From Candidatus Omnitrophota bacterium (GTDB lineage: Bacteria > Omnitrophota > Gorgyraeia > Gygaellales > Profunditerraquicolaceae): 64,000 nucleotides of DNA. The position numbers were made by a program, and so were the translations under genes. The notes under the pieces were generated by a model. That model was not told where the DNA came from. It did no database searches and saw nothing but the letters and a program-made list of their open reading frames with translations. Positions 9,689 through 46,036 of this stretch are shown here, in pieces (position 1 is the first letter of the stretch; each line of letters starts with the position of its first letter). The stretch covers positions 118,255 through 182,254 of the forward strand of contig JACQXK010000009.1 of assembly GCA_016208765.1 (NCBI GenBank), given 5' to 3'.

Positions 9689-9690
9689 CT

Positions 9691-30021: not shown

Positions 30022-30255
30022 ATGAACTTAAACGAACTAGAGAACGAAAAGACAAAAATTAAGCTTGCAGGGGAAGAGGTAGAGGTTAAAACTTCTGATT
30101 CCGTAAAGGATACCTTAACAAGGCTCCTTAAGGAAAAAGGCATTGATTCTTTTACCATTTTGGTTGACGGAGAAGAAGTTACCTCTACCGATGACTTGCC
30201 GGCTACTTTTGACGGTCATGATATCGAAGTTGAAAGATACGTCAAGGCAGGTTAA
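30022..30255 (+). CDS. Small beta-grasp ubiquitin-like protein (Ubl) with C-terminal Gly
   Basis: 77 aa. Alternating hydrophobic pattern of a beta-grasp fold (KIKLAGEEVEVK ... FTILVDGEEV). Ends ...VERYVKAG. First gene of an E2/E1/JAB cassette. Confidence 0.5.
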   Translation: MNLNELENEKTKIKLAGEEVEVKTSDSVKDTLTRLLKEKGIDSFTILVDGEEVTSTDDLPATFDGHDIEVERYVKAG

Positions 30256-30325
30256 ATAAAAAAGCCAAAGGAGAGGGAGAGATTCTTTTCTCCCTCTCCT
30301 AAAGTTTAATAAGGAGCTTGAGAAG

Positions 30326-30913
30326 ATGATAGATACGGAATTAATCACAAAAGCAAAGAAAAAATCAACATTAATTGAAAAGATTGACGCCTCTTGGCGG
30401 GAGTTTACGGAAAGCTTAAAAGAAGGTATCTTTACGGTTCCTTTTACCGGAGGTTACAGATGCGTAATCAAGGAAGATGATATGCTTATTGAGGGCTATT
30501 CTGGTCTATTGCTCATAGATAAGGTCTACTATAGCCATAAGACCTATTCTTTAAAGATACCTGTCAAATATTACCCTTTTAAAATTTACGGCATCTATGA
30601 CCAAGGTGGCTGCTTTATTGCGTTTGTTTCAGAGCCGGAGATAGGCTTCCACTATTTGGGTATGAGCGATAAGGGGCATACCATCTGCACCGGAGAGATT
30701 CAATACCTTAACCCTGAATCTTTAGGCTTGCTCAAAGAAGCCTGCTTAAAGATAGCCAAGTCATTCAGGGTAATCAACCTTGAATCCTTAGGAACCGTAA
30801 TCTTACCCGAGAGATTCTCAAATTTAAAGAACATCCTGTCAAATAAAGATAAAGATGTATCATGCAAATTTTCGGAATTGGATAAGCAAGGTCTGATTGA
30901 GCGGATCATTTGA
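30326..30913 (+). CDS. E2-like (UBC-fold) conjugating enzyme candidate
   Basis: 195 aa; HYLGMSDKGHTICTGEI resembles the UBC HPN...Cys catalytic segment. Sits between the Ubl and the E1. Confidence 0.4.
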   Translation: MIDTELITKAKKKSTLIEKIDASWREFTESLKEGIFTVPFTGGYRCVIKEDDMLIEGYSGLLLIDKVYYSHKTYSLKIPVKYYPFKIYGIYDQGGCFIAFVSEPEIGFHYLGMSDKGHTICTGEIQYLNPESLGLLKEACLKIAKSFRVINLESLGTVILPERFSNLKNILSNKDKDVSCKFSELDKQGLIERII

Positions 30914-31854
30914 AGGAGGATAAAACTATGCCACAAGAAGCTATTTATGAACGACAGAGATTAATAGAAGGTCTAGAAATACCCGAAGTCGCCTCGGTAG
31001 TAGGCTGTGGCGGAACGGGTTTCTGGACTGCTCTTCTTCTTTCCATGTCAGGAATTAAAGAATTGATCTTGGTTGATACCGATATAGTTGAGGTATCCAA
31101 TCTGAACAGGCTGCTTTTACAGGAAAGCTCTGTAGGAAAGAAGAAAGCAGAAGCCCTAAAAGAACTCATATCCGGCATAAGAAAAGAAATAAGGATTGAG
31201 ATTCAGGATATGCGTATCGAAAAGCCCATAGACTGCCAGATATTACGTGGAGATATATTTTGCTGCACGGACAACTTAAAAAGCCAGCAGATTATCTGCG
31301 CTTTCTGCAAAAAGAACGAACTTGCCTACCAAAGAATTGGCTATGACGGCACAATCCTGAATGTTTCAAAGACCTTCCCGCTTTCCTTAAAAGATACAGA
31401 TGAGGATCGGGGCTATACAATTACTCCTTCCTGGGTGATTCCTGCGGTATTTGCCGCGGCAGCCGGAGTTTCATCACGCACTTACAAGGAACTTTGCCTT
31501 ATGGATGATATCGGGAAGGTTCATATACAGCATTCTTCTCATATCTGTCGCAAAATTTTAGACGATGCGAGAATCGAAGGCGAGGATAACATTATTGATA
31601 ACATCGAAGACCATATACCTGATAACTACGGTTACTGTGATGATTGCTCAAGGATTGACCCTGACGGCTCTGATTACGGATACTGTCCTGACTGTGAAGA
31701 ACATTACAGCGATGACGATATAGAGGACATAAAAGAAAAAGCAAAGAATGAGGAGTACGACCGGATAATCGGGGAGATTGAGGCAGGAGAGATTACTGAC
31801 CCAAAGTTATTAGAAGCCATTAGAAAATGGGCAAAAGCAAAAGGAGGAAAATAG
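30910..31854 (+). CDS. E1-like activating enzyme (ThiF/MoeB/UBA superfamily)
   Basis: Rossmann motif VVGCGGTGFWTALLLSMSGIKELILVDTDIVEVSNLNRLLL (GxGxxG ... D.D.V..SNLNRQ). Acidic Cys-rich C-terminal tail (CDDC...CPDC). Confidence 0.75.
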   Translation: MKEDKTMPQEAIYERQRLIEGLEIPEVASVVGCGGTGFWTALLLSMSGIKELILVDTDIVEVSNLNRLLLQESSVGKKKAEALKELISGIRKEIRIEIQDMRIEKPIDCQILRGDIFCCTDNLKSQQIICAFCKKNELAYQRIGYDGTILNVSKTFPLSLKDTDEDRGYTITPSWVIPAVFAAAAGVSSRTYKELCLMDDIGKVHIQHSSHICRKILDDARIEGEDNIIDNIEDHIPDNYGYCDDCSRIDPDGSDYGYCPDCEEHYSDDDIEDIKEKAKNEEYDRIIGEIEAGEITDPKLLEAIRKWAKAKGGK

Positions 31855-31855
31855 A

Positions 31856-32668
31856 ATGTTTACGTTAGAAGATACTAAAACCAAAAAAAGCAATATTTTA
31901 GATGTAAGGATAAAAAATTACGGGGAATGTGGTTTTTGTACTGACCATGACCACAAAGAAACTCTAAAGATACCTTGGAATATCTGGAGTCAGTGGCAGT
32001 ATATCAGTCAGCGCATACAGGATAAGGAATGGGGCGCTATATTTTGGGTTAAGGATAATACCATAACGAGCTTTAAAATCCCAAAGCAGGAGGTAGGCTC
32101 AGTAGACTGTGAATTCAAGGAAGAATTAGGGGGTGATGGCATAATCCATTCGCACCACGATATGGGAGCGTTTCATTCATCGCAGGACGATGCCCACGCG
32201 CGCAATCTCTACACTTACAGCATAGTTATAGCTAATTCCAAGGGAAGTATTGCTACAAAAAGAGTAAAGCTACCCTGTAACGGCTTTGGCTACGTCAAAA
32301 TAAGCTTAAAACTGGTTGAATTACCTGAGATAGATCTTTCAAAGATAAGCGAAAGAACAAGGGAGTTAATTCCAGAGGCGACCTCAGAATTTGAAGAAAG
32401 CGAGCATCCTTGCGACAGTTGTCAAACCGGCGACTGCGAGAACTGCGAACACTTAGGTATGCCTTATCTAGCTTGCCAGACCTGTGATACCTTTAAATGC
32501 AAATCGTGCAAGACAACCGCCGGTCTGGACATCCGGGGTGTGCTTCCTTTTTGCGAGCTCTGTAATGGCTCTGATATTTGTGCTTCCTGCGAAAGAATCG
32601 CAAAATACCTTAAAAATTACCCAGAAGAGCGAGGTCATTTACAAACTCCAGTTGAGAGCCAGGCGTAG
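31856..32668 (+). CDS. JAB/MPN (JAMM) metallopeptidase with C-terminal Cys-rich zinc-ribbon region
   Basis: Exact JAMM motif H-S-H-x7-S-x2-D in IIHSHHDMGAFHSSQDD plus upstream Glu. C-terminus has ~16 Cys in CxxC pairs. Confidence 0.7.
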   Translation: MFTLEDTKTKKSNILDVRIKNYGECGFCTDHDHKETLKIPWNIWSQWQYISQRIQDKEWGAIFWVKDNTITSFKIPKQEVGSVDCEFKEELGGDGIIHSHHDMGAFHSSQDDAHARNLYTYSIVIANSKGSIATKRVKLPCNGFGYVKISLKLVELPEIDLSKISERTRELIPEATSEFEESEHPCDSCQTGDCENCEHLGMPYLACQTCDTFKCKSCKTTAGLDIRGVLPFCELCNGSDICASCERIAKYLKNYPEERGHLQTPVESQA

Positions 32669-33189: not shown

Positions 33190-33512
33190 ATCCTCTTTCT
33201 TTTTCTCGCCTTAAAAATAGCCCAAGATTGACTTTTGTGCAAGAAAATCCTTTGGAAAAATTCACCTCTACCTTGTCTTTGCGGTTTGCCTCAAAGGACA
33301 AGGTATCAAGGATATCCTGCCCCTTCGGGGAGTCTCAATTTTTCCAAAGGACTCCAGGAAACTCGCTCACTTGGGCGTTCGCTTCCTTTCGGGCGTATCT
33401 GTTTTCTTGACAAAAGACGTGATTTTTGTGGGTTACCTCAAAAATCACTTCAAATCATTGGGCTTATATTTTCGGCATCAAAAGAAAGGAGGCTTACATG
33501 AGCCAAGTAAAA
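33190..33512 (+). promoter_or_regulatory. Copy 2 of the duplicated leader/promoter module
   Basis: Direct repeat of 29341-29675, including the GGGGAGTCTCAATTTTTCCAAAGGACTCC hairpin and the RBS+ATG+MSQVK start. Confidence 0.6.
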
Positions 33513-33791
33513 AAAGAAATATTAAAGAAAAACGAAAAATTTGAGGATGGGATGCTGCGCACGGATGCCTGCATGGAAAGGCATCTGGGCAGCCGTAATT
33601 CTCAATACAGGACCTATTCAGAGGATCTGTCGCAGAATTCCTTCGGTTTTTCCGCTGTCTGGGAAGAAAGACATCTTATGAAAGACGTCTACAATCTCAT
33701 CAACAAGGGCTTTAAGCCAAACGGTTCTGAAACTCTGGAAACCTTTGTTGAGAAACATCGGGATTTGCTTGATGAAGAAGGTGATTTCTAA
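33498..33791 (+). CDS. Hypothetical protein (97 aa) driven by leader copy 2
   Basis: Starts with the same MSQVK codons as the spoVG-region ORF and then diverges. No recognisable domain. Confidence 0.3.
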   Translation: MSQVKKEILKKNEKFEDGMLRTDACMERHLGSRNSQYRTYSEDLSQNSFGFSAVWEERHLMKDVYNLINKGFKPNGSETLETFVEKHRDLLDEEGDF

Positions 33792-34677: not shown

Positions 34678-34874
34678 AGAAAAAGACTGAAAAATATGTA
34701 ATTAAGCGGACTACGAAGATTGCTACTAATCCGACAGAAAAATATTCTTAGAGGTATTAGGTTGTAGTTTTAATAGTTTTATTGTAGAGGAATTGTTTGA
34801 CGAATAAGAAATTAGGTTTATAATTAGATTTAGACTGTTATAATATGTTACAAAAGGTGTAAACCTATAAAAGA

Positions 34875-35066
34875 ATGAAAGAATCTATTGAAGTATATAC
34901 AGTTGAAGAGCTTGCAAAGGCCTTAAAACTGCATCCTTATACTATCAGACGTTTATGCCGGGAAAACAAGATCCCGGCTTTTAAATTTAGCGGCCAGTGG
35001 CGGTTTAACAAAGACTCAATAGCTAAATGGGCAAAGGAAAGAGAGAAATTATATTATAAGAAATAA
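34875..35066 (+). CDS. Excisionase / MerR-like HTH_17 DNA-binding protein (Xis-like)
   Basis: 63 aa, YTVEELAKALKLHPYTIRRLCRENKIPAFKFSGQWRF (helix-turn-helix of the excisionase/HTH_17 type). Preceded by TTGACG...TATAAT promoter-like elements at about 34797-34830. Confidence 0.5.
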   Translation: MKESIEVYTVEELAKALKLHPYTIRRLCRENKIPAFKFSGQWRFNKDSIAKWAKEREKLYYKK

Positions 35067-35081
35067 GACAGCTTAGAAAAT

Positions 35082-36323
35082 ATGCTCAACAAAAGAATTG
35101 TTATTACTGGAATAGGCGTAATTTCTCCGATAGGTATTGGTAAGGACAAATACTGGCAAAGCCTTTTTGAGGGAAAGTCAGGAATAAAACCAATTACGCT
35201 TTTTGATGTTTCAGGGCTTAAGGTTAGAACCGGCGGAGAGATTAGTAATTTTAATCCTAAAGAGATTTTAGGTGATAGCAATCTGCGTACTTTAGATAGG
35301 GCTACTTTACTGCTTGCCTCAAGCACTAAATTAGCCATCGATGACGCAAAACTGGAAATTAATAAAGAGAACAACCGGCAAATAGGAGTATCTGTTGGTA
35401 CCACCTTCGGTAGCTTAAATAGTATCTCCGAGTTTGATAAGGCTTCAGTTACTGACGGTCCGCGTTATGTCAACCCTTCGGTTTTTCCCAACACTGTATT
35501 TAACTCTCCGGCAAGCCAGCTCTCCATTCGATTTCATATCAAAGGATTCAATACTACTATTTCATCTGGTATGTGCGCTGGGCTTGATGCCATAGACTAT
35601 GCAAGAGATTTTTTATATCGCGGCAGAGCCAAAACCATTATTTGTGGTGCAGTTGAAGAATTTTGCATTCAAACATTCCTCGGTTTCTATAAATTAAACT
35701 ATCTTGCCGGACTAAAAAATAACTCTGAGCCAGTATCTTGCCCTTTTGATAAGCGCAGAAATGGTATTGTTTTCTCAGAGGGTGCTACAACCCTGATGTT
35801 GGAAAGCTTGGACGATGCTTCATTCCGTAAAACTAAGATTTACACGGAAATCCTCGGTATTGGATCTTATTTTGATCCCTACCGTCTGACTAAATATAAC
35901 CCTGAAGGTAAAGGAATGAAGCAGGCAATGCACTTAGCACTTAAGGATGCGGGCCTTAGTCCGCAGGATATTGGTTGTGTTTTTGCTAATGCTAATTCTA
36001 CACAAGACGCAGATAAATTTGAAACTCAAGCCGTAAAAGATGTTTTTGGTTCTTATGCTGATAAAATACCTATTGTTGCTGTTAAGTCTATGCTTGGCGA
36101 GACATTCAGTACGGGCGGAGGCCTTGCAGTCATAGCCGCCATAGGCGGTATAAATAATGGCTTTATCCCCCCAACTATTAATTATAAAAAGAAAGATTTG
36201 GGATTAGATTTGGATTATGTTCCAAATAAGGCGCGGAAATTTAATATAAATACGGCTATGGTAAATACCTTTGGTCAGAATGGCTGGAATAAAAGTTTAA
36301 TTATCGGCAGACGCAAAAAATAA
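35082..36323 (+). CDS. Beta-ketoacyl-ACP synthase-like protein lacking the His-His dyad (CLF-like partner subunit)
   Basis: KAS fold with Cys in TISSGMCAGLDAIDYA. Positions of the two catalytic His read ANANST and GETFSTGG instead of HGTGT / GHxxGAAG. Confidence 0.65.
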   Translation: MLNKRIVITGIGVISPIGIGKDKYWQSLFEGKSGIKPITLFDVSGLKVRTGGEISNFNPKEILGDSNLRTLDRATLLLASSTKLAIDDAKLEINKENNRQIGVSVGTTFGSLNSISEFDKASVTDGPRYVNPSVFPNTVFNSPASQLSIRFHIKGFNTTISSGMCAGLDAIDYARDFLYRGRAKTIICGAVEEFCIQTFLGFYKLNYLAGLKNNSEPVSCPFDKRRNGIVFSEGATTLMLESLDDASFRKTKIYTEILGIGSYFDPYRLTKYNPEGKGMKQAMHLALKDAGLSPQDIGCVFANANSTQDADKFETQAVKDVFGSYADKIPIVAVKSMLGETFSTGGGLAVIAAIGGINNGFIPPTINYKKKDLGLDLDYVPNKARKFNINTAMVNTFGQNGWNKSLIIGRRKK

Positions 36324-36328
36324 AGAAT

Positions 36329-37435
36329 ATGATCAACTTTGCTTTTTTAGGCCACTATATGAGCGCGGACAATCTTGAGGATATTTACAGATTTTATCCT
36401 TTTTTGCGCAGTTTTAACTGGTTTTTGAAGAGACAACCTAGGATTTTTAGAGAAAATATTATTAAATATCTTCCGCCCCATAAATTCATGGATATAAGAA
36501 ATGTTGTTTCAAAAACAGGCTTGAAAATAGACGGTATTGCTGTAATGTGTCCTTATGTGCCAAAGCAGATGGTAACATTAGGAGAAAAAGTTGTTTTAAA
36601 AAAAATAATCTCTTCGGTAAGACTGGCAAAGAAATTGGGTGCTGGCATTGTCGGCTTAGGCGGTTTTACTTCTATTGTAGGCAACGAAGGCGAAATAGTG
36701 GCAAAAGAAGTGGATGTTGCAGTTACATCCGGAAATACTTATACCGCAGCTTTAGCTTTACAGGGTATTGAAAAAGCCGCGCAGATTTTGGAGAGGCCTT
36801 TAGAGAGTTCTGTTGTGGCAGTAATTGGAGCTACCGGTGATATCGGCGGTATTTGTGCGAAAATTCTCTCTAGAAAAGCCAAAACGCTTATTCTTTGTGC
36901 AAGAAAAATAGAAGAAGCCGTTGATTTTATTTCAGTCTTGAAGAAATCCTCTAGGACAAATATCATAATTGAAAAATATGCCGATAAGGTAGCATCTCAA
37001 GCCGATTTTATTATTAGCGCCACCAGTGCCGCGACTACCATTATTTCGCCGCAGAACCTAAGGCCGGGCGCAGTAGTTTGTGATGTATCTTTACCTCCAG
37101 ATATTGCTAAAGAAGTGATTAAGATGCGCAATGACGTATTTGTTTTTGACGGTGGTAAGGCTAGTTTTTTAAATTCCGGTTTAATCGAAAGTAATAAATG
37201 GAAAGGCATATTTCCGAATGGTATAATTTATGGATGTCTGGCTGAAACAATGATTTTGGCTTTAGAACAGAAATTTGTAAATTTTTCTATAGGTAGGGGC
37301 AATATCACTGAGGATAAGATTAAATTTATCTCTGAGTTAGCCGAAAGGCACGGTTTTTCTTTGGCGCCATTCCATTGCGGGAGATATATTTATACACAGG
37401 AAGACATTCAAAGAATTAAAAATCTAATTTCTTAA
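36329..37435 (+). CDS. Long-chain acyl-[ACP] reductase (Aar) family protein
   Basis: GLGGFTSIVGNEGEIVAKEVDVAVTSGNTYTAALALQGIEKAA ... VAVIGATGDIGGICAKIL ... LILCARK and C-terminal GRGNITEDKIKFISELAERHGF parallel cyanobacterial Aar (ALGGFTSII...TTGNTHTAYVICRQVEAAA...VAVVGATGDIGSAVCRWL...LILTARN...GRNQITIEKMEAIGEASVRHGF). Confidence 0.6.
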   Translation: MINFAFLGHYMSADNLEDIYRFYPFLRSFNWFLKRQPRIFRENIIKYLPPHKFMDIRNVVSKTGLKIDGIAVMCPYVPKQMVTLGEKVVLKKIISSVRLAKKLGAGIVGLGGFTSIVGNEGEIVAKEVDVAVTSGNTYTAALALQGIEKAAQILERPLESSVVAVIGATGDIGGICAKILSRKAKTLILCARKIEEAVDFISVLKKSSRTNIIIEKYADKVASQADFIISATSAATTIISPQNLRPGAVVCDVSLPPDIAKEVIKMRNDVFVFDGGKASFLNSGLIESNKWKGIFPNGIIYGCLAETMILALEQKFVNFSIGRGNITEDKIKFISELAERHGFSLAPFHCGRYIYTQEDIQRIKNLIS

Positions 37436-37450
37436 AAGGAGGCAATTACT

Positions 37451-37705
37451 ATGGCAGACACGGGAGGTATTAATATTAAACAGGAAATTCAGACAATATT
37501 GTCAAAGATTCTCAACCGTCCGTCGGAAGAAATTACCGATGATGCAAGGTTTGTAGAGGATTTGGGGATGGATTCCATTATGTCTATCGAAATCCTTGCT
37601 TCTATTGAAAAGAAATTTAAGATTACAATTCCCGATGAAGAAATAAAGAAGGTGGCTTCCTTAAGACAAGCAATTGAGCTAGCAGAAAAATACATCAGAA
37701 AATAA
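37451..37705 (+). CDS. Acyl carrier protein
   Basis: 84 aa; phosphopantetheine-attachment motif DLGMDSIMSIEIL. Confidence 0.75.
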   Translation: MADTGGINIKQEIQTILSKILNRPSEEITDDARFVEDLGMDSIMSIEILASIEKKFKITIPDEEIKKVASLRQAIELAEKYIRK

Positions 37706-38940
37706 TGTCGGATTTTAAGAAAAGACGCATTGTAGTCACGGGCTTAGGCATAATTTCTTCAATTGGCATTGGTAAAGATGCTTTTTGGAAGAATGCCATT
37801 GCCGGTAAATCTGGGATTTCCGAGATTACTACTTTTGATACTTCTGGTTATCTCGTGCATAAAGGCGGTCAAATCAAAGATTTTAGTACTGAGGAATTTA
37901 TTGATAAAAGAAAACTTAAATATGTGGGTCGCGCGTCTCAATTAGCGGTTGCCGCCGCAAAGTTAGCCTTGGAAGATGCAAAATTAAGCCGTAGTTATTT
38001 ATCTAGACATAATGCTGGCGTGAATATGGGTACTACAATGGGTGAAACGCAATGGATTGAGGAAATAGACACAGTTTGGGCAACCTCCGGCAGTGAAAAA
38101 GTAAGAATTGAACCAATATATGAATATCCGCCTTATGCGCTTACTTCAAATGTTGCAATGGAGTTTAAATTGACTGGCCCTAATTTTATTTTTACTACTG
38201 CCTGTGCTGCGGGTAATTATGCCATTGGATATGCTTATGATCTACTTCAGGCAGGCAAAGCAGATTTGATGCTTGCCGGAGGCTCAGACGCGCTTTCAAG
38301 AATTGCATTCACTGGTTTTAGCCGGTTAGCTGCGGTTGCCCCTGAAAAATGCCAGCCATTCGACAAGAACAGAAAAGGAATGATGGTGGGTGAGGGTGCC
38401 GCCGTTCTTGTATTAGAAACTTTAGAGAATGCTCTCAAACGGAAAGCCTCTATTTACGCTGAGATTCTTGGGTATGGTTTAAGCTGTGATGATTATAGTA
38501 TGATGATTACCATTGAAGAAGGTATGCGTTTTGCTATGGGAGAAGCAATAAAAGAATCAGGCATTGATAAAAACGAAGTGGATTATATCAGCGCGCACGG
38601 CACAGGCACTCCACAGAATGATAAAGAAGAATGTGCGGCAGTAAGAAATGTTTTTGGAGAAAGAGCCAAAGAAATTCCACTTACTTCCTTAAAATCAATG
38701 TTAGGGCACACTATGGGCGCTGCTTCTGCGATCGAAGCATTAGCCTGTTGTTTAACGGTAAAAGATGATATAATTCCACCTACAATTAACTATGAAACAC
38801 CGGATCCTGAATGTAATCTGGATCACGTACCTAATACAGGTAGAAAACAAAAGATAAATATTGCTTTAAATAATGCCTATGCTTTTGGCAGTAATAATTC
38901 ATGTTTGGTAATTAAAAAATACGATGAGCGATCTCAGTAA
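37705..38940 (+). CDS. Beta-ketoacyl-ACP synthase II (FabF-like), catalytically complete
   Basis: Cys in FTTACAAGNYAIGYA; His in ISAHGTGTPQNDKEE; His in LGHTMGAASAIEA. Confidence 0.8.
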   Translation: MSDFKKRRIVVTGLGIISSIGIGKDAFWKNAIAGKSGISEITTFDTSGYLVHKGGQIKDFSTEEFIDKRKLKYVGRASQLAVAAAKLALEDAKLSRSYLSRHNAGVNMGTTMGETQWIEEIDTVWATSGSEKVRIEPIYEYPPYALTSNVAMEFKLTGPNFIFTTACAAGNYAIGYAYDLLQAGKADLMLAGGSDALSRIAFTGFSRLAAVAPEKCQPFDKNRKGMMVGEGAAVLVLETLENALKRKASIYAEILGYGLSCDDYSMMITIEEGMRFAMGEAIKESGIDKNEVDYISAHGTGTPQNDKEECAAVRNVFGERAKEIPLTSLKSMLGHTMGAASAIEALACCLTVKDDIIPPTINYETPDPECNLDHVPNTGRKQKINIALNNAYAFGSNNSCLVIKKYDERSQ

Positions 38941-40402
38941 AATTAAGGATAAGTATGACGTTATAATCATCGGCGCCGGCATCGGAGGCCTTGTTTGTGG
39001 TTGTTATTTGGCAAAAGCAGGGATGAAGGTATTAATTGTAGAGAGAAATAATAAAGTTGGGGGATATTGTGGATCATTTAAGAGGAATGGTTTTATTTTT
39101 GATACAGGTGTTCATGCTTTAGAAGGGTGCGGACCTAATGGTATCTTAAATAAGATCATCCAAGATTTGGGGATAAATTCTTTATTAAAAATAAAAAGAA
39201 TTGATCCTTCCGATGTAATTATTACTAGTTTTGGTAATTTTAATATTAGAAATGATATTAAAATTACGATAAATGAATGGACAGAAAGATTCCCGCGTTG
39301 TAAAGATGGAATCCAAAACATCTTTGGGCTTATTTTAAATAAGGATTTTGTTTTGAGATACCCCGAACTTAAGAAAATAACCTTCGATAAATTACTAAAA
39401 AGGCATGTTAAGGACAAGTTTATCACAACATTGTTATCTGTTTTGTTTGTCAATGTGGGTTTGCCAATAAATAGATTATCAGCGGTAAATGGCCTTATCT
39501 TCCTGAATCATTACTTGTCAGATGGAGGGTATTACCCGGAAGGGGGCATGCAAGGTTTTGTTAATGTTTTTCAAGAAAAATTCAAATCTTTCGGTGGGAC
39601 GGTATTATTAAATACTACAGTCAACAAGATATTCTCAGAAAATAAGTGTGTACGTGGAGTCGTAATAGCAAATAACAATATTTTTGAATCAAAATATGTT
39701 ATTTCTAATTGTGATGCTACACAGACATATTTAAATTTAATTGATAACCAAGAGACTCAAGTTAAATACAAAAAGCGTTTAGGAAACATGGTTACTTCTG
39801 CCTCTGTTTTTATGGTCTCTTTGGGTTTAAAAAAAGATATATATGATAGAAATTTTGATTGCGGTGCGTTGTGGTATTTGAGAAATGAAGATGAAAATGC
39901 TGGACTTGAAATGCTCTTTAAGAATAAAACAAATTACAATAGCAATTGTATTATGATAGCCTTCCCTTCATTCCACGATAATAAATTAGCCCCGGTTAAT
40001 AAATCGTCTATCTATTTGATGTGCAACGCTAATTTTAAAAACGCAGAGTATTGGAAAGAAAATGAAGAAAAAGTTGCGAATGAGCTAATTGGTATTGCGG
40101 AGAAGGTTGTCCCACTAATAAAGAATAATATTGAAGTTAAGCTTATCGCTACCCCACAGACTCTATATAAATATACTCTTAATAAAAACGGCGCTATGCA
40201 TGGATGGGCTTCCTTGGTATCACAAATTGATCCTACAATTATTCCTCGAGAAAGTGATATCAAGAATTTATTTTTCGTTGGTCATTGGATAACGCATCCT
40301 GGGCAAGGTGGAATTCCAATGGTGGCAAAATCAGCCTATAATTTGGTTAACATAATACTTAGCAAAAGTAAACAAAACGCATTTATGGAGAAATGCCGAT
40401 GA
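38924..40402 (+). CDS. FAD-dependent oxidoreductase (phytoene-desaturase/amine-oxidase superfamily)
   Basis: N-terminal dinucleotide-binding motif DVIIIGAGIGGLVCGCYLAKAGMKVLIVERNNKVGG; 492 aa. Confidence 0.65.
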   Translation: MSDLSKIKDKYDVIIIGAGIGGLVCGCYLAKAGMKVLIVERNNKVGGYCGSFKRNGFIFDTGVHALEGCGPNGILNKIIQDLGINSLLKIKRIDPSDVIITSFGNFNIRNDIKITINEWTERFPRCKDGIQNIFGLILNKDFVLRYPELKKITFDKLLKRHVKDKFITTLLSVLFVNVGLPINRLSAVNGLIFLNHYLSDGGYYPEGGMQGFVNVFQEKFKSFGGTVLLNTTVNKIFSENKCVRGVVIANNNIFESKYVISNCDATQTYLNLIDNQETQVKYKKRLGNMVTSASVFMVSLGLKKDIYDRNFDCGALWYLRNEDENAGLEMLFKNKTNYNSNCIMIAFPSFHDNKLAPVNKSSIYLMCNANFKNAEYWKENEEKVANELIGIAEKVVPLIKNNIEVKLIATPQTLYKYTLNKNGAMHGWASLVSQIDPTIIPRESDIKNLFFVGHWITHPGQGGIPMVAKSAYNLVNIILSKSKQNAFMEKCR

Positions 40403-42486
40403 ATATTTATTCTATTTCATTGTTGTTAGCATGTGTATTTAATTTATTTATAGGCTTGTTTGTATATTTTAAGAATCCCAAAGAGAAGGTAAACAGATTT
40501 TTTGGAATATACTACATTGTTCTTACTATGTGGGTTTTTGGATGTTTTATGGAAAGTAGTGTTGGGACTGCACAAGATGCGCTTTTTTGGGATAAGATTC
40601 TTTACACGGGTTGCATACTCGCTGCTCCTTTGTATCTTCATTTTTGTTATATTATTACGGGAAAAAGCAATAAATCAAAGTTGTTATATTTTTCTTATTT
40701 AACCGCAATTATTTGGTTAATTTTTAATTTTAGCTCTTCTTTAAGGCCGTTTTTTATTAACGATGTTGTTCATAAATATTGGTATAGATTTATTGCTGTG
40801 CCCGGATTTTTGTGGTATGTCTATGTGCTTTGGTTTAACTTATTAGTGACGATGATGTTTGTCGTATTGTTTAAATATTTCTTACATTCTTCAGGAATCA
40901 AAAGATTGCAGGCGAAATACTTGTTGTTTGCATTTTTGATCATGATCTCAGCAGGTTCTTTTTATTTCCTGCTTTTGTTAAATATTTCATCTCCCCCAGT
41001 CGATCCGTATCTTTTGATACTATTTGGAGTTATTATGTCCTACGCTATAGTCCGGCACCAGTTAATGGACATCGAAGTCATCATCAAGAAATCCCTCGTC
41101 TTCGCCGGGATGTTTGCTTTTATCTTTGGTATTTATATTGGAATTACGCTTATAATCTCTCAATTTGTAGCAGGTGGTAAAATTTTCTCTTTGATGATTA
41201 GTGCATTGATCATCACCGTAACTCTTCGTCCTCTTGAAAACTGGCTTGTTAATATCACCGACAAATTCCTCTTTCAGAAAAAATACGAATACAAGCAGAT
41301 CCTAAGGGCGTTTATCGATGAGGTAGTAACCGTCTTAAATCTTGATGAGATAGTTAATTCTACGCTAAAACTCTTGGACCAAACTTTACATCCATACACC
41401 GCAGGGGTATTCATTTTGAACAAGGTAGATGATAAATTCCAGCTTTACAATTCATCTGGGCTGGAAGATAAGGATATGGTTTTTACTTCTGAATCAAAGC
41501 TGTTAGCTTTCTTTAAGAAGACCCATGGTCCTTCGGTAATTAAGCAGATAGATGGTATAACCGGAGTAAATCCGGAGATAGCTGTAGAAATGACTAAATT
41601 GAAAGCAGTAATCGCCCTACCTTTTATGTTGCACAATGATTTGATTGGTTTTATTTCGTTGGGGAAAAAGAAGTCAGACGAAGAATACACTAAGGACGAC
41701 CTTGATGTGCTTCTGGATCTCGCCCGTACCGAGGCAATAGCTATAGGTAACGCCCAACTCCTTACTGAGGCCGCCCAATCCGAAAGGCGCGCGGCCATCG
41801 GCACCATGGCTGCAGGAATAAATCATGAGATTGGGAATCCGCTAAATATTATGTCAAATAAGATTCAGGTATTTAAGTTGGCTCGGCAAAAGGGGTTGTT
41901 TAAAGATAAGCCTAGCGAAGGAATCTTAGATGAGGCAGAGAAAGCATTGGATGAATGTCTGAAGCAGACAGAGAGGATTTCAATAATCACGAGAAAGTTG
42001 TCAAATTTTGCCAAACCAAGCAAAGAGTTTAAACCGGATTTGGTAAACATCCCTCAGGAAGTAGATGAAACTCTTTTTATTGTCGGTCATGAACTGGATC
42101 TGGAAAGAATCGCGGTTAAAAAGGAATTTAGCGCAGAGCCGCAGAGAATTTTGGCGGATAAGTATGATATTCAGCAGATTTTGTTCAATATAATAAGGAA
42201 TGCCGGACAGGCAATTGAGGGCCAGGGGAAGATTATTATCAGAGTGATGCCAACCAGAGATGGCAAAGTGCATATTGAAGTGGAAGATACAGGTAAAGGA
42301 ATCCCTGAGGATAAAATACACAAGGTATTTGAGCCGTTTTTTACCACCAAAGGCTCTAAGGGCGGTACAGGCCTGGGTTTATCTATTGTCAGGCAGCTTG
42401 TCCGGCGCAATAAAGGCGAAATTACTTTTCGCAGCCTTGCCGGTATCGGGACGACTTTTATTATAGCTTTTCCCAAAGCTGGTTAA
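40393..42486 (+). CDS. Sensor histidine kinase with polytopic N-terminal membrane domain
   Basis: About 7 TM helices, a GAF-like region, a HisKA segment (INHEIGNPLN), and HATPase_c (GTGLGLSIV ... GIGTTFIIAFP). Confidence 0.75.
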   Translation: MPMNIYSISLLLACVFNLFIGLFVYFKNPKEKVNRFFGIYYIVLTMWVFGCFMESSVGTAQDALFWDKILYTGCILAAPLYLHFCYIITGKSNKSKLLYFSYLTAIIWLIFNFSSSLRPFFINDVVHKYWYRFIAVPGFLWYVYVLWFNLLVTMMFVVLFKYFLHSSGIKRLQAKYLLFAFLIMISAGSFYFLLLLNISSPPVDPYLLILFGVIMSYAIVRHQLMDIEVIIKKSLVFAGMFAFIFGIYIGITLIISQFVAGGKIFSLMISALIITVTLRPLENWLVNITDKFLFQKKYEYKQILRAFIDEVVTVLNLDEIVNSTLKLLDQTLHPYTAGVFILNKVDDKFQLYNSSGLEDKDMVFTSESKLLAFFKKTHGPSVIKQIDGITGVNPEIAVEMTKLKAVIALPFMLHNDLIGFISLGKKKSDEEYTKDDLDVLLDLARTEAIAIGNAQLLTEAAQSERRAAIGTMAAGINHEIGNPLNIMSNKIQVFKLARQKGLFKDKPSEGILDEAEKALDECLKQTERISIITRKLSNFAKPSKEFKPDLVNIPQEVDETLFIVGHELDLERIAVKKEFSAEPQRILADKYDIQQILFNIIRNAGQAIEGQGKIIIRVMPTRDGKVHIEVEDTGKGIPEDKIHKVFEPFFTTKGSKGGTGLGLSIVRQLVRRNKGEITFRSLAGIGTTFIIAFPKAG

Positions 42487-42493
42487 TTTTTAT

Positions 42494-43183
42494 ATGTTTG
42501 AAGAAATTCGTAATTTGTTTAAAGATAAAGATAGGGATGAAGAGGAAATCAAAATCTCTATGTGTCACGAAAAAGATGCAGATGGAAAAGAATGGGTGGT
42601 TGTGTCTGTTCAGGATAGCGGAGCTGGCTGGCACTGGGATGATATGCCCCGGGATGCCAGAGAAAGGTATCAAAATATAAGATCATCTACGGAGAAAATG
42701 AACGGAAAGTTTGAATATGCAAATATTAAAGGACAAGGTGCCGTAGTCAAAGTTAGGTTTCCAGCATCTTATGATGAAAATGAGAAATTAGAATCAACTG
42801 TTTCTTCCCAATTTTTTCAAGGGGGTGTAATTATGAAAAAAGTTTTGATTGTAGATGATGAGCTTGAATTCGTGAAAGATTTCTCTAAAGCATTGGTAAT
42901 GTTTGGCCATGAGCCCTTTCAGGCAGTTGATGGAGAGGGGGCGTTTGAGGTAATTGAAACTAAAAAGCCGGATATTGTGCTTTGTGATTACAAACTTCCT
43001 GATATGGAAGGGGATAGAATCTTAGAAATGACAAAGAAGAATCATCCCGAAATAAAATTTGTGATGCTAACTGCCTATTATGACGAGGTGGTTAAGGAGC
43101 GTTTTAAAAGATTAGGTGCGGATGAAGTAATCTTCAAGCCCATAGTCTTAACTGAAATCGAAGCTTTATTGGCTAAGCTCTAA
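42494..43183 (+). CDS. Response-regulator receiver protein with N-terminal HATPase_c-like remnant
   Basis: C-terminal REC domain (VLIVDDELEF ... DIVLCDYKLPDMEG ... FVMLTAYYDE) preceded by a ~100-aa segment resembling the end of a kinase ATPase domain (VVVSVQDSGAGWHWDDM). Confidence 0.55.
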   Translation: MFEEIRNLFKDKDRDEEEIKISMCHEKDADGKEWVVVSVQDSGAGWHWDDMPRDARERYQNIRSSTEKMNGKFEYANIKGQGAVVKVRFPASYDENEKLESTVSSQFFQGGVIMKKVLIVDDELEFVKDFSKALVMFGHEPFQAVDGEGAFEVIETKKPDIVLCDYKLPDMEGDRILEMTKKNHPEIKFVMLTAYYDEVVKERFKRLGADEVIFKPIVLTEIEALLAKL

Positions 43184-43197
43184 CAGAAAGGTTCATC

Positions 43198-43449
43198 ATG
43201 TCAAAAATCAGGGATTTATTTCACAAGGTCGGCAATTGCCACAACAAAATCAGCGTTGCCGCAGGTCTAACCAAGGCTGAATTAAAGCGAAAGCATGAGG
43301 GCGGCACTATGCCAGAGGAAATAAAAAAAGTAGTTGGCAGGTTGTCAGAACTGGAGCAGCACGCAGTAGAAGCAAGCAAGGTCTTAAACCAATTGAAAGA
43401 TATTATTTATGGTGCTATAGACCCTGATACAGGCAAGGCCAAGAAGTAG
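43198..43449 (+). CDS. Small hypothetical protein (83 aa), possible degenerate Hpt-like phosphotransfer protein
   Basis: DLFHKVGNCHNKISVAAG loosely resembles the Hpt HxxKG region. Weak evidence. Confidence 0.2.
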   Translation: MSKIRDLFHKVGNCHNKISVAAGLTKAELKRKHEGGTMPEEIKKVVGRLSELEQHAVEASKVLNQLKDIIYGAIDPDTGKAKK

Positions 43450-43452
43450 AAT

Positions 43453-44331
43453 ATGGAAAATCTTAAAAAGATTTTAATTGTTGATGACGAAAAATTTGTG
43501 ACTGATGCGTTGGAAGAATTTTTCCACAGCAAGGGTTACAGAATATTTAAAGCGCAGGATGGTCAGGCATGCTTAGATATTATTAAAAGCGAAAAGCTCG
43601 ATTTAGTGCTTTTAGACATAAAGCTTCCTAAGATTGACGGAATTGAAATTTTAAAATTACTGCGCAGGGATTATCCTGAGGTTAAAGTTATCATTATGAC
43701 TGCCTATGACTTTGAGTATAAAACCAAGGTTGATAATATCGGCTGCGATGCATTTTTTGTTAAGCCCCTCTTAATTGATGAATTAATGCAGGAAGTAGAA
43801 AATTTGCTGTCAGCGGGTGTTAAAATAAGTAAACAGCAGAGAGATATTATTCCGCAGCTAGCGGAAGAGGTAGAATTTAGCGTTTCAGAAGGGATGTTGC
43901 CCTGTGCCAAGCTTTTAATAGTAAGCCCGCGAGATTTGATTTCTAGTCTCCTGAAGGATTATTTCACGCAGCAACAAATCTGTGAAGGGATATACGTAGT
44001 AGCTGAAAGTGGACTAGAGCAGTTAGATTATATAAAGAAATTCCAGCCCGATATTATTCTTTTGGATGTGGCATTAGTAGGAGTGCTCGGAGAATTCGGA
44101 GATATTCTAATAAAAATGCCGCATCCACCGAAAGAAATTATCCTTTTTGGCGATCCGGCGGTAAAATGGGAGGAAGCAGAAATATTAATCAAGAGAGGCA
44201 CTAAATTTATTGAAATGCCCATGGATTTACACGATATGACATATCCGATTAGAGAGACTATCGAGCGCCTAAGCAATGCAGTAAAAGAAGTTTGCATAAA
44301 ATACCATTTATTTAGTAAGGAGGCAGGTTAA
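43453..44331 (+). CDS. Response regulator with REC domain plus second REC-like domain
   Basis: ILIVDDEKFVTD ... DLVLLDIKLPKIDG ... IIMTAYDFE; then a second alpha/beta segment (DIILLDVAL). Confidence 0.55.
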   Translation: MENLKKILIVDDEKFVTDALEEFFHSKGYRIFKAQDGQACLDIIKSEKLDLVLLDIKLPKIDGIEILKLLRRDYPEVKVIIMTAYDFEYKTKVDNIGCDAFFVKPLLIDELMQEVENLLSAGVKISKQQRDIIPQLAEEVEFSVSEGMLPCAKLLIVSPRDLISSLLKDYFTQQQICEGIYVVAESGLEQLDYIKKFQPDIILLDVALVGVLGEFGDILIKMPHPPKEIILFGDPAVKWEEAEILIKRGTKFIEMPMDLHDMTYPIRETIERLSNAVKEVCIKYHLFSKEAG

Positions 44332-44724
44332 ATGTTAAAGAGAAAGATGAAATTATTAGTCGTTGATGATGAAAAGGATATTTGCCATTTTGTAAAACTG
44401 CTTTTTAAAAAGGAAGGGTTTTTGGTGTATAGCGCCCTTTCCGGCACTCAGGCCTTAAATGCAGCAAGGAAAATTAAGCCTGATATAACCCTTTTAGACA
44501 TCTATCTTAAAAAGGGAATCACTGGCCTTGAGGTTCTTGAGCAAATAAGAAAATCTGTCCCCAATTGCCGTAATATCATGGTTACTTGGGATAAGGCTGA
44601 GGAAAAAATGCAGGAAGCAAAAAAGCTGGGAGCGGTTTCCTATCTTACCAAGCCCTTAACTGTAACACAGCTGCTTAAAGTAGTCACTCGCATAGCAAAA
44701 CAGGCAGAAAGAGAGGGCCGGTAA
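44332..44724 (+). CDS. Single-domain response regulator (CheY-like receiver)
   Basis: LLVVDDEKDICHFV ... DITLLDIYL ... conserved Lys near KPLT. Confidence 0.7.
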   Translation: MLKRKMKLLVVDDEKDICHFVKLLFKKEGFLVYSALSGTQALNAARKIKPDITLLDIYLKKGITGLEVLEQIRKSVPNCRNIMVTWDKAEEKMQEAKKLGAVSYLTKPLTVTQLLKVVTRIAKQAEREGR

Positions 44725-44988
44725 ATGGCCAATCCTATGTCTGATGAGCAGAGAATATACGAAAAAATAGAAAAAGAGAAATTAATCATCCCTTCAGTTA
44801 TTTGGGAACTACTCGACCACCATTTAGGAAATGATGTTTATACCATTTCCTTGATTGCCGGTAGCCACGTTACCGGCCAAGAAAAAGAGCCTATCCCCAT
44901 TGAAGACGGCGAAAAGATTGTTAAACACTGCGTAGAGATTAAGAAGTTTTTACAGAAATTAAACGAAGCAACCCGGGTGAAAAGCTGA
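44725..44988 (+). CDS. Hypothetical small protein (87 aa)
   Basis: Stop/start overlap with neighbours; no motif recognised. Confidence 0.2.
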   Translation: MANPMSDEQRIYEKIEKEKLIIPSVIWELLDHHLGNDVYTISLIAGSHVTGQEKEPIPIEDGEKIVKHCVEIKKFLQKLNEATRVKS

Positions 44989-44989
44989 G

Positions 44990-45268
44990 ATGTTCTGGGG
45001 AAAAGAAGAAAAAATCCCTTCACGGTTAAAACAACAGTTGTTATCCAGAATCAGGCCAATATTGGCAAAACATCTTAAGGTTGGTGAAGAGAAGATTATC
45101 CCTGAGGCAAAACTCGTAGAAGAATTAGGCATAGATTCTCTGGAGGCTGTCGAAATTATTATGGAGTTAGAAGAGGCGTTTGATATTGAGATTATGGATG
45201 CGGACGCAGAAAAAATGAAAATCGTTGATGAGGTGCTGGAATATTTAGCCAAGAGGATAAAACAATGA
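44990..45268 (+). CDS. Acyl-carrier-protein-like small protein
   Basis: LGIDSLEAVEIIMELEEAFDIEI carries the DSL phosphopantetheine-site pattern of ACPs. Embedded among receiver genes. Confidence 0.45.
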   Translation: MFWGKEEKIPSRLKQQLLSRIRPILAKHLKVGEEKIIPEAKLVEELGIDSLEAVEIIMELEEAFDIEIMDADAEKMKIVDEVLEYLAKRIKQ

Positions 45269-45645
45269 TTAAGCTTTTATTGGTAGATGATGAAAAAGGA
45301 CTATGTGAGTATTTAAGGGATTTTTTTAAATTGCGCAGTTTCACTGTGTTTACTGCCACAAACGGCCAGGATGCGCTTTCTCTTGTAAAGAAGGAAAAGC
45401 CCAAGGTTGTATTCTTAGATATTAAAATGTCAGGCATGTCCGGTTTGGAAGTATTAAAAGAAATAAAGAAAATAGATAGTGCAACGAAAGTGATTATGGT
45501 TACTGTTCTGGACGATGAAAAGACCAAGGATGAAGCAAAAAAATTAGGCGCGGACAGCTTTATTACTAAACCTTTTATTACTGACCGCCTAGAAGAAATT
45601 GTCGGGGAAAAAATTAAAGAGTTATTAGAAGAGAAAGGGCAATAA
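45265..45645 (+). CDS. Single-domain response regulator (CheY-like)
   Basis: LLVDDEKGLCEYL ... VVFLDIKMSGMSG ... TKPF. Confidence 0.7.
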   Translation: MIKLLLVDDEKGLCEYLRDFFKLRSFTVFTATNGQDALSLVKKEKPKVVFLDIKMSGMSGLEVLKEIKKIDSATKVIMVTVLDDEKTKDEAKKLGADSFITKPFITDRLEEIVGEKIKELLEEKGQ

Positions 45646-45646
45646 A

Positions 45647-46036
45647 ATGCTTAAACCCAAAATATTAGTGGTGGATGATGAATTAGATGTTCTGGATAGA
45701 TTAGCTAATATCGTTTCGAGGCATTTTCTTTGTGAAGTCAAGAAGGCTTCCAGCGGCGAAGATGCCTTAATCCTGCTTAAGAAGGAGAGTTTTGACCTTG
45801 TGCTTTTAGATATTAAGATGCCCGGTTTAAGTGGTATCGACGTGATAAATGAAGCAATAAAATTTACTCCTCAAACAAAATTCCTGGCTATTTCCGGTTA
45901 TGACAGTGATGAAGTTGCTTCTGCCGCGCTTAAGGCCGGAGCAGTTGATTTTATCCCTAAACCTCAAACTTCAAAAGCAATCCAGCTTAAAATCAAAGAG
46001 ATATTAAGCCAGTTAGGTAAATACGAAGCCAAGTGA
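45647..46036 (+). CDS. Single-domain response regulator (CheY-like)
   Basis: ILVVDDELDVL ... LVLLDIKMPGLSG ... PKP. Confidence 0.7.
   Translation: MLKPKILVVDDELDVLDRLANIVSRHFLCEVKKASSGEDALILLKKESFDLVLLDIKMPGLSGIDVINEAIKFTPQTKFLAISGYDSDEVASAALKAGAVDFIPKPQTSKAIQLKIKEILSQLGKYEAK

Follow-up and report, generated by a model that had tools for sequence, protein, structure and literature searches.

A putative lipid operon of Omnitrophota whose ketosynthase pair resembles the amxFabFmut/amxFabF2 heterodimer of anammox bacteria

What does a bacterium make with two neighboring ketosynthases (KSs), one of which has lost its catalytic triad, and does such a cluster belong to the chromosome or to the mobile element beside it? 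These questions are raised by five genes at positions 35082–40402 of a 64-kb stretch of DNA, hereafter the window, from a Candidatus Omnitrophota metagenome-assembled genome (MAG; assembly GCA_016208765.1, contig JACQXK010000009.1, positions 118,255–182,254). We examined this core together with its operon context, 34797–46036. Proteins encoded there are 100% identical to GenBank MBI4706903/4. The reading that we favor, with moderate confidence, is that of a native chromosomal lipid operon of Omnitrophota, in which a KS and a partner of the chain-length factor (CLF) type build a chain on their own acyl carrier protein (ACP), a flavoenzyme modifies this chain, and a reductase releases it as an aldehyde. 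By sequence, the two KSs, hereafter KS1 and KS2, are related specifically to amxFabFmut and amxFabF2, respectively, the two subunits of a KS heterodimer from anammox bacteria.

The initial annotation described a compact five-gene cluster at 35082–40402. The ORF list and the Pfam and NCBIfam profiles bear out all five ORFs, their coordinates, and their families:

35082..36323, + strand: KS1, a dead FabF-like protein of 413 amino acids (best PDB match 9s5h_C, 6e-116, 391 bits)
36329..37435, + strand: NAD(P)H-dependent thioester (acyl-ACP) reductase of the AAR/PigE-N type, 368 amino acids (NCBIfam PigE 217 bits, TIGR04058 131 bits)
37451..37705, + strand: dedicated ACP of 84 amino acids, phosphopantetheine site Ser42 in GMDSIM (PF00550 59.7 bits; PDB ACP matches)
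37705..38940, + strand: KS2, an intact FabF-type ketosynthase of the amxFabF2 type, 411 amino acids (best PDB match 9s5h_B, 1.3e-152, 511 bits)
38924..40402, + strand: FAD protein of the CrtI/phytoene-desaturase family, 492 amino acids, GxGxxG at residues 17–22 (Pfam Amino_oxidase, NAD_binding_8)

Five nucleotides separate the KS1 and reductase genes and 15 nt the reductase and ACP genes, while the ACP and KS2 genes overlap by 1 nt and the KS2 and FAD genes by 17 nt. A chance grouping is excluded, as the same order recurs at 60–73% protein identity in two unrelated metagenome contigs, L001 and L089. Sequence features, family relationships, and this conserved gene order are direct observations.

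The ketosynthase pair

KS1 was aligned with Bacillus subtilis FabF, with KS2, and with both chains of PDB entry 9S5H. In pairwise and multiple alignments, the columns of the Cys/His/His triad hold Met164, Asn303, and Glu340, and Lys335 is kept. The initial annotation had read from the motifs ANANST and GETFS that both catalytic histidines were lost and had considered that they might survive at shifted positions. Their loss stands, as the alignment puts these motifs in the two His columns, as Asn303 and Glu340. The active-site cysteine that it took to be retained does not: the catalytic column is Met164 (SSG-M-CAG vs. TTA-C-AAG) and Cys165 lies one residue further. Among the 120 closest KS1 homologs, the Cys column is occupied by Met (79), Phe (33), Tyr (4), Ile (2), Val (1), or Leu (1). 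The first His column is Asn in 118 of them, with one Thr and one Ser, and the second is Glu in all but one, which has Asp. Cys165 itself (window 35574–35576) is kept in 106 of these 120 dead-KS proteins and is replaced by Thr in the anammox proteins. KS2 has intact catalytic residues, Cys167, His298, Lys330, and His335, and the gate residue Phe394.

The closest PDB relatives of KS1 and KS2 are two different chains of the same complex. KS1 scores 391 bits with 9s5h_C, followed by 9s5h_B (279 bits) and B. subtilis FabF (275 bits); KS2 scores 511 bits with 9s5h_B, followed by B. subtilis FabF (342 bits), and 335 bits with the ishigamide ketosynthase 6kxd. The chains of 9S5H and 9S5I are amxFabFmut and amxFabF2 of Brocadia fulgida; their genes lie in "Cluster I", to which ladderane synthesis is putatively assigned (Granatino et al., bioRxiv 10.64898/2026.05.19.726425). 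Each of these proteins is inactive alone and they co-purify as a heterodimer, amxFabFhet, which decarboxylates malonyl-ACP and forms acetoacetyl-ACP (Granatino et al.). It is KS/CLF-like, the dead subunit contributing Phe135, Thr138, and Val139 to the lining of the tunnel, and it preferred C6–C8 probes in a cross-linking assay; the nearest structural neighbor of amxFabF2 is the ishigamide KS 6kxd (Granatino et al.).

The resemblance extends to individual residues. KS1 is 48.2% identical to amxFabFmut and KS2 55.6% identical to amxFabF2, and the triad positions read M/N/E in KS1 against V/N/E in amxFabFmut. The three tunnel residues F135, T138, and V139 of amxFabFmut are identical in KS1 and invariant in the alignment of its homologs (A1). 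Likewise, KS2 shares with amxFabF2 the tunnel, gate, and Mg-site residues, namely the equivalents of A164 and F203, M337, F394, S296, E344, and N389. B. subtilis FabF differs at F135, T138, V139, S296, and N389. The conservation of Val139 and Phe135 is a hint of a tunnel geometry like that of the anammox enzyme. The charge asymmetry reported for the heterodimer was not reproduced by counting net charges over the aligned segments, a sequence proxy that failed to recover it even for the 9S5H chains themselves.

We built a tree of 55 ketosynthases by neighbor-joining (NJ) on Kimura distances with 100 bootstrap replicates. The triad-less KSs of Omnitrophota and anammox bacteria form one clade (100/100 replicates) and their active partners a separate one (92/100). 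The anammox branch of the dead KSs is nested in the diversity of Omnitrophota in 87 of the 100 replicates, a lead from the NJ tree only. The initial annotation had proposed that KS1 is a CLF-type partner of the intact KS2; that both proteins find their closest PDB relatives by sequence in the two chains of the amxFabFmut/amxFabF2 heterodimer supports this proposal.

Reductase, flavoprotein, and the proposed pathway

The second gene had been taken for a homolog of the cyanobacterial acyl-ACP reductase (AAR), with the reservation that it might prove to be a protein of the glutamyl-tRNA reductase type. Profile scores assign it to the AAR superfamily of thioester reductases, with a Shikimate_DH fold (Pfam, NCBIfam): 217 bits for the N-terminal PigE domain (PigE-N), 131 for AAR, and only 39 for hemA, the glutamyl-tRNA reductase. 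Its best PDB matches are 4PPM (1.4e-38) and 6JZQ (4e-28). The residue Cys303 aligns with Cys294 of AAR in a G-C-x-A-E motif, and a dinucleotide-binding motif of the GxTGxxG type runs from Gly167 to Gly173 (G-A-T-G-D-I-G). Neither the Cys303 column nor the GxTGxxG motif varies among 120 homologs of the reductase (120/120). PigE-N is a thioester reductase (PMC8341465), and AAR and PigE-N both reduce a thioester to an aldehyde via an active-site cysteine. Cys303 is thus the predicted acyl-accepting residue, and the enzyme should release its product as a fatty aldehyde. The PigE model has 837 positions, of which the match spans 34–354, and the score of 217 bits compares with a cutoff of 850. The last residue of the protein is 368, and no fused C-terminal class III aminotransferase domain is found in it. 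In GenBank, this protein (MBI4706904.1) is labeled "shikimate dehydrogenase" and has a shortened start, whereas its homologs span all 368 residues; the "shikimate dehydrogenase" label is corrected here. The genes at 34875–46036 were all assigned to other families than the aldehyde-deformylating oxygenase, so that the lack of this usual partner of AAR, noticed in the initial annotation, is confirmed among these neighbors. The aldehyde or alcohol product envisaged there is plausible in the light of related clusters, which carry either an AAR-like or a FAR-type (NAD_binding_4) thioester reductase.

The flavoprotein scores 162 bits with TIGR02734, whose cutoff is 238, and reaches the cutoff of none of the carotenoid equivalogs. 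Over 491 amino acids, it shares 34.8% identity (256 bits) with the phytoene-desaturase homolog called PDH in the Brocadia cluster L075, while the best carotenoid desaturase in PDB reaches 90 bits. It is equally close to the PDHs of other Omnitrophota clusters. By these matches, it is a homolog of the PDH of anammox Cluster I (kuste3607 type). It probably acts on the acyl chain as a modifier. A precedent is FabX, which carries out flavin-dependent acyl-ACP dehydrogenation in an unsaturated fatty acid pathway of the anaerobic type.

We propose the following pathway. KS1, as the dead, CLF-like subunit, would heterodimerize with the active KS2 as amxFabFmut does with amxFabF2. The pair would prime itself by decarboxylation of malonyl-ACP and then extend an acyl chain on the ACP of the operon, keto-reduction and dehydration being supplied by FabG and FabZ encoded elsewhere. 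The CrtI-like flavoprotein would then modify the ACP-bound chain; oxygen-independent desaturation is the likeliest reaction, as the most economical guess. The reductase would take over the acyl group on Cys303, reduce it with NAD(P)H, and free a fatty aldehyde, possibly unsaturated, which may be reduced further to an alcohol destined for envelope or membrane lipids. Expression would be controlled by the HTH_17 protein and the membrane-embedded kinase encoded on either side of the five genes, perhaps according to the state of the membrane. The heterodimer, malonyl-ACP decarboxylation, and acetoacetyl-ACP formation are established for amxFabFhet, and the reduction of a thioester to an aldehyde for AAR and PigE-N. 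For the window operon, we infer heterodimerization, the length of the chain, what the flavoprotein catalyzes, what becomes of the aldehyde, and how the genes are regulated.

Several observations weigh against this pathway. Neither ketoreductase, dehydratase, enoyl reductase, malonyl transferase, nor phosphopantetheinyl transferase is found in the window operon (ORF list, Pfam), and the pathway cannot run on its genes alone because these enzymes are not encoded there. In vitro, amxFabFhet yielded acetoacetyl-ACP only and elongation was never shown (Granatino et al.). The ACP of the window scores 44 bits with the amxACP structures 9s5i_E and 7auf, less than with ordinary bacterial ACPs (51–52 bits); by this comparison, it is not specifically amxACP-like. 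The anammox PDH homologs lack CrtI activity and have no known reaction. The reductase, at 130.9 bits, is far below the cutoff of the AAR equivalog TIGR04058 (449.7 bits). The literature holds no product or lipid data for any Omnitrophota, and the main paper on Omnitrophota genomics has no discussion of lipids. Finally, in locus L003, reductase and kinase families of the window type are found inside a housekeeping plsX-fabD-fabZ-fabF-fabG operon whose FabF groups within the clade of KS2, so that general fatty-acid machinery, and not a specialized pathway, is a possible identity of the system.

Related clusters and chromosomal setting

A dead-KS profile was run against a single genome from each GTDB species. 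In total, 380 species matched, and the best 80 loci (L009–L088) were analyzed, ORFs being called and classified in all of them. Sixty-eight are of the Omnitrophota type, several of which are deposited as "uncultured Planctomycetales" or "bacterium". They include the complete genome of Ca. Velamenicoccus archaeovorus, where the cluster carries a FAR-type NAD_binding_4 reductase. The 12 anammox-type loci belong to Brocadia, Scalindua, and unnamed Planctomycetota MAGs of the same gene order, which is uniform: ACP, FabZ, KS, dead KS, PDH, and B12 radical-SAM. The radical-SAM gene directly follows PDH in 10 of the 11 anammox loci that reach far enough, the exception being L077. Within 10 kb of the dead-KS gene, HTH_17, thioester reductase, and 7TM kinase genes are found in none of the 12. 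Four layouts are distinguishable among the Omnitrophota loci:

Layout A: HTH_17, dead KS, FabG, ACP, FabZ, KS, [FAR-/AAR-type reductase], (nitroreductase, GMC oxidoreductase), PDH, 7TM kinase
Layout B: HTH_17, [reductase], FabG, dead KS, FabZ, KS, ACP, third KS, PDH (PDH), kinase
Layout C (window): HTH_17, dead KS, reductase, ACP, KS, PDH, kinase
Layout D: dead KS, FabG, FabZ alone

The seven-gene order of layout C recurs in L001, with a reductase 70% identical to that of the window, and in L089 (60% identical). In L090, the order is FabG, dead KS, FabZ, KS, ACP, reductase, and kinase. Most relatives encode FabG and FabZ inside the cluster; no enoyl reductase is found in any related cluster among the loci classified. 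Among the 38 Omnitrophota loci with enough flanking sequence, 21 have an adjacent partner KS and were considered as full clusters. PDH is present in 16 of these and the anammox-type B12 radical-SAM gene in none, nor is it found in the window operon. A chain-release enzyme is encoded in 14 of the 21: a FAR-type NAD_binding_4 reductase in ten, an AAR-type reductase in four, and a LuxD-like acyltransferase-methyltransferase in one, one locus having two types. This non-orthologous replacement is the strongest contextual argument for reductive release, because two unrelated families of thioester reductases and once a LuxD-like acyl-ACP acyltransferase serve as release enzymes within the cluster.

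Some individual loci depart from these layouts. In L009, the closest GTDB species representative, the cluster lacks a reductase, and a gene fusion of a LuxD-like protein (PF02273) and a methyltransferase lies between PDH and the kinase (14493–16244), which suggests another release chemistry, yielding a free acid or a methyl ester. L003 (ENA ERZ795054 NODE_619, 2131–11104) has the order yceD-rpmF-plsX-fabD-fabZ-fabF-kinase-fabG-reductase, with a reductase 46% identical to that of the window. An acyl-ACP reductase near plsX suggests that lipids derived from aldehydes or alcohols are maybe a core feature of Omnitrophota. In L066, from the unclassified MAG "bacterium MF1_201704_bin_1079" (9851–14599), dead KS, ACP, FabZ, and KS are followed directly by a B12-binding radical-SAM gene, soon after which the contig ends. 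Over 79% of its length, the product of this gene shares only 29% identity with the radical-SAM enzyme of anammox Cluster I, a putative relationship, and L066 might be a non-anammox cluster with a radical-SAM step. In L008, L014, L045, and L056, genes for isocitrate/isopropylmalate dehydrogenase, malate dehydrogenase, an Lpd-like flavoprotein, an LplA/LipB-type ligase, and a small lipoyl carrier lie directly 5' of the cluster. This arrangement is absent beside the window cluster, L001, L089, and the anammox loci.

The unit in the window is longer than five genes, with HTH_17 on the 5' side and a seven-transmembrane (7TM) kinase and an array of receiver-domain genes on the 3' side:

34797..34824, + strand: promoter-like site TTGACG-16-TATAAT, 11/12, a consensus match only, in the 198-nt gap 5' of HTH_17; possible operon promoter
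34875..35066, + strand: DNA-binding protein of the HTH_17/excisionase family, 63 amino acids (PF12728 59.7 bits, TIGR01764 42.6 bits)
40393..42486, + strand: 7TM-GAF-HisKA-HATPase sensor histidine kinase of PrsK-like architecture (PF16927 70 bits, HATPase_c 91 bits)
42494..46036, + strand: co-directional receiver-domain array and a second small ACP-like protein (ORFs; Response_reg, PP-binding)

HTH_17 stops 15 nt before KS1, and the kinase gene overlaps the FAD gene by 10 nt, to which it is translationally coupled. The operon extends from HTH_17 (34875) to the 7TM kinase (42486) and probably onward through the response-regulator genes. The kinase is the conserved last gene of the cluster, present in 16 of the 21 full Omnitrophota clusters, and in L003 a HisKA_7TM kinase gene lies between fabF and fabG. 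In B. subtilis, the membrane-embedded kinase DesK controls a lipid desaturase. By analogy, the window kinase may tie expression of the operon to the state of the membrane. Downstream of it, five consecutive receiver-domain proteins are encoded (42494–46036), with the gene of an ACP-like protein embedded in the array (44990–45268; PF00550 39.8 bits). In L001, the kinase is followed by a response regulator and a 266-amino-acid PP-binding protein, 39% identical over the ACP part. The receiver array may belong to the same regulatory unit as the lipid operon.

On the 5' side, an F-type conjugative element of about 32 kb (window 2431–34677) separates mnmE (979–2430) from the lipid operon. Its genes specify TraG_N, a coupling protein resembling TraD, TrbI, TraC, a secretin, an ATPase of the E/F type of type II secretion systems and a platform with pilins, TraU, TraF, TraH, and DUF6876. 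The initial annotation had noticed that the cluster follows an excisionase-like gene on the flank of an island and suspected horizontally acquired cargo. That the operon was carried by this element, with HTH_17 as its excisionase, is barely probable. The element does lie directly upstream, at about 2.4–34.7 kb, and HTH_17 passes the cutoff of the TIGR01764 "excise" domain (42.6 vs. 28.8 bits). However, HTH_17 homologs (36–48% identity) directly precede the dead-KS cluster in 20 other loci and also in L089, and the genes 5' of HTH_17 are there housekeeping genes (isocitrate/malate dehydrogenase, Lpd, lipoyl ligase, lipoyl carrier) or unrelated. The element is present neither in L001 nor in L089. 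The seven genes of L089 are in the identical order, but preceded by PilZ, HTH_8, and pilin genes and not by a mobile element. L001 has the conserved cluster behind a different upstream region, with an RHS toxin and a Y1 transposase. Moreover, the downstream kinase and regulator genes are syntenic with those of the relatives, no integrase or relaxase was recognized among the ORFs scanned, and no tRNA or direct-repeat boundary enclosing the cluster within the element was found. The cluster is chromosomal and not cargo, because HTH_17 heads it in more than 20 loci, one of them without a nearby mobile element; the conjugative element is inserted next to a resident operon. As an excisionase of the adjacent element, HTH_17 was rejected on the same grounds, and it is a probable transcription regulator.

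Other features of the window concern the conjugative element or lie beyond the operon. An IS200-type Y1 transposase is encoded at 3064–3639. A non-coding repeat of about 300 nt is present within the element in two copies (window 29340–29700 and 33190–33540; 87% identical), each of which ends in AAGGAGG and the ATG of an ORF starting MSQVK. As single-stranded DNA, copy 2 is predicted to form a long hairpin (−62.6 kcal/mol, z = −6.4). This copy is also where, at window 33484, two further assemblies of the strain break off, owing to the internal repeat. These repeats may resemble the single-strand promoters of plasmid leading regions. Between them (29944–32668) are encoded a ThiF-type E1-like protein (30910–31854), a JAB deubiquitinase-like protein with a Cys-rich tail (31856–32668), and two small upstream ORFs. 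To judge by sequence, the element seems to carry, in the ThiF/JAB pair, a module for ubiquitin-like conjugation. At window 47586–61478, a single ORF of 4630 amino acids has coiled-coil-like stretches; a TPR block lies near residue 1265 and a region resembling M20 peptidases at about 3900–4106. Giant proteins are a known trait of Omnitrophota. Known RNA families (Rfam) were not found in the window.

Alternative readings and comparison with known systems

The most serious competitor of a specialized lipid operon is that these genes belong to the primary fatty-acid and membrane-lipid machinery of Omnitrophota, the KS/CLF heterodimer being a general elongating enzyme and the reductase and flavoprotein performing routine tailoring, with no specialized product. 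We regard this as possible, though on balance unlikely. The breadth of the distribution argues for it, as 68 more species loci of the Omnitrophota type, among the best 80 of 380 and including Ca. Velamenicoccus archaeovorus, encode the dead KS, and 17 loci have it amid housekeeping genes with no other linked partners than FabG and FabZ. So do the reductase and 7TM kinase genes of L003 inside rpmF-plsX-fabD-fabZ-fabF-fabG and the grouping of its FabF with KS2. However, the MAG CAYJUK01 holds two different dead-KS loci (L020 and L026), and L012 contains two clusters in tandem. The Met-type clade to which the window belongs thus has the look of an additional, accessory system. FabG, FabZ, and FabD are also lacking in the window operon, and side pathways typically have an extra ACP of their own and a release enzyme. 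Synthesis of a polyene by a highly reducing system resembling type II polyketide synthases (PKSs), in the manner of aryl polyenes or ishigamide, with the CrtI-like enzyme adding or isomerizing double bonds and a polyenal as released product, appears improbable. The absence of an enoyl reductase from all related clusters would fit such a route, as would the match of the cluster FabZ proteins of relatives to ApeP-like and ApeI-like Pfam families and the 335 bits between KS2 and 6kxd, the closest structural neighbor of amxFabF2. Yet KS2 matches B. subtilis FabF equally well (342 bits), and the Cys column of KS1 and its homologs is Met or Phe rather than the Gln of PKS chain-length factors. Furthermore, neither a ketoreductase nor a dehydratase is encoded in the window operon, and no aryl-starter ligase, methyltransferase, LolA/MMPL export set, or cyclase adjoins the cluster.

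Two other products can be envisaged from the neighbors and relatives of the cluster. A dedicated short-chain synthase supplying octanoyl-ACP for protein lipoylation is suggested by L008, L014, L045, and L056, where the cluster lies directly 3' of the genes for Lpd, an LplA/LipB-type ligase, and a lipoyl carrier, by the preference of the anammox heterodimer and of amxFabZ for C6–C8 substrates, and by the conserved tunnel residue Val139. For lipoate supply, however, there would be no point in having a CrtI-like enzyme, a 7TM kinase, and a reductase by which the thioester is destroyed, and lipoylation genes are absent beside the clusters of the window, L001, L089, and the anammox bacteria, so that we hold this function to be very improbable. 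The chance that the operon makes a cyclobutane lipid of the ladderane type, as proposed for anammox Cluster I, is close to negligible. Four of the six Cluster I protein types are indeed present (ACP, active KS, dead KS, and PDH), but the B12 radical-SAM gene occurs neither in the window operon nor in any of the 21 full Omnitrophota clusters, no gene of the FabZ/FabA fold was found at 34875–46036, and ladderanes are known from anammox bacteria only. The missing radical-SAM and FabZ genes led us to reject ladderane synthesis by the window operon.

The proposed native lipid operon with reductive release can be set beside the systems from which its parts are known. With cyanobacterial AAR (TIGR04058; 6JZQ/6JZU), the reductase shares the fold, the catalytic cysteine (303/294), the GATGDIG motif for NADPH, and the expected conversion of acyl-ACP to fatty aldehyde. 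It differs by its score (131 bits vs. a cutoff of 450), by the absence of an aldehyde-deformylating oxygenase, and by its location in a KS/CLF cluster or, in other Omnitrophota, in a plsX-fab operon. PigE's N-terminal domain, from the MAP branch of prodigiosin synthesis (4PPM; PMC8341465), is the best profile and PDB match and shares the motif G-C-x-A-E-T, but the window reductase stands alone, without aminotransferase fusion or prodigiosin genes. The KS-alpha/KS-beta pairs of type II PKSs, including Iga11/12 of ishigamide and ApeO/ApeC of aryl polyenes, likewise combine an active KS with an inactive, tunnel-shaping paralog and a dedicated ACP. In contrast, the Cys column of KS1 is of the Met/Phe and not the Gln type, KS1 and KS2 group with FabF and the anammox pair, and cyclases, aromatases, and aryl-polyene accessory genes are lacking. 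By profile scores and gene content, the window operon is accordingly none of these: its reductase is neither an AAR equivalog nor PigE, KS1 is not a PKS chain-length factor, and the cluster is not an aryl-polyene cluster. Two further parallels are functional analogies only, with no sequence relationship. FabX of Helicobacter pylori is a flavoenzyme that dehydrogenates acyl-ACP without oxygen, but it relies on FMN and [4Fe-4S] and has another fold. In DesK/DesR of B. subtilis, the sensor has five transmembrane helices and not a HisKA_7TM domain.

Anammox Cluster I (KustE3603–3608) shares more with the window. Both have an active and a triad-less FabF of the same two clades, with common His-to-Asn and His-to-Glu changes, the same tunnel-lining and Mg-site residues, a dedicated ACP, and a CrtI-like PDH (35% identity) directly after the KS pair. 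They differ in their hosts, an anammox planctomycete and an Omnitrophota bacterium, and in gene order, ACP, FabZ, KS, dead KS in the former and dead KS, reductase, ACP, KS in the latter. Cluster I has FabZ and the B12 radical-SAM enzyme, both of which the window lacks, and the window ACP is not amxACP-like. Conversely, the thioester reductase, the HTH_17 regulator, and the 7TM kinase are additions of the window. This link to the "ladderane" Cluster I is new relative to the initial annotation. In the preprint, Cluster I is described as "unique to ladderane-producing bacteria", and the dead FabF encoded there as the first instance of a chain-length factor in a fatty-acid pathway (Granatino et al.). 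We find the same KS pair, with the same tunnel residues, across many Omnitrophota lineages, which leaves only the radical-SAM step as a candidate for a ladderane-specific one. Clusters of the antiSMASH "ladderane" type in Omnitrophota MAGs have been reported as transcribed in situ, a mention made in passing and without analysis. The dead-KS cluster family probably explains such "ladderane" calls in non-anammox MAGs.

A more speculative extension, which we consider doubtful, is that the KS/CLF pair and the CrtI-like flavoprotein constitute an old lipid module common to Omnitrophota and anammox bacteria, to which the latter added only the B12 radical-SAM enzyme for ladderanes. If so, the window operon would be a "ladderane pathway without the cyclase" with its own release enzyme, and its aldehyde product would reveal the chain made by the KS/CLF pair and PDH, possibly polyunsaturated or unusual, that is, the long-sought ladderane precursor. 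Under our favored reading of a native operon with reductive release, fatty aldehydes or alcohols made under the control of a membrane sensor kinase would be the first concrete hint at the lipid chemistry of a phylum without isolates. Compared with Cluster I, the product of whose module has resisted study in anammox bacteria, the variant of the window is compact, with five enzymes, and its reductive release would make it a tractable heterologous system in which to read the product of the KS/CLF pair and the flavoprotein.

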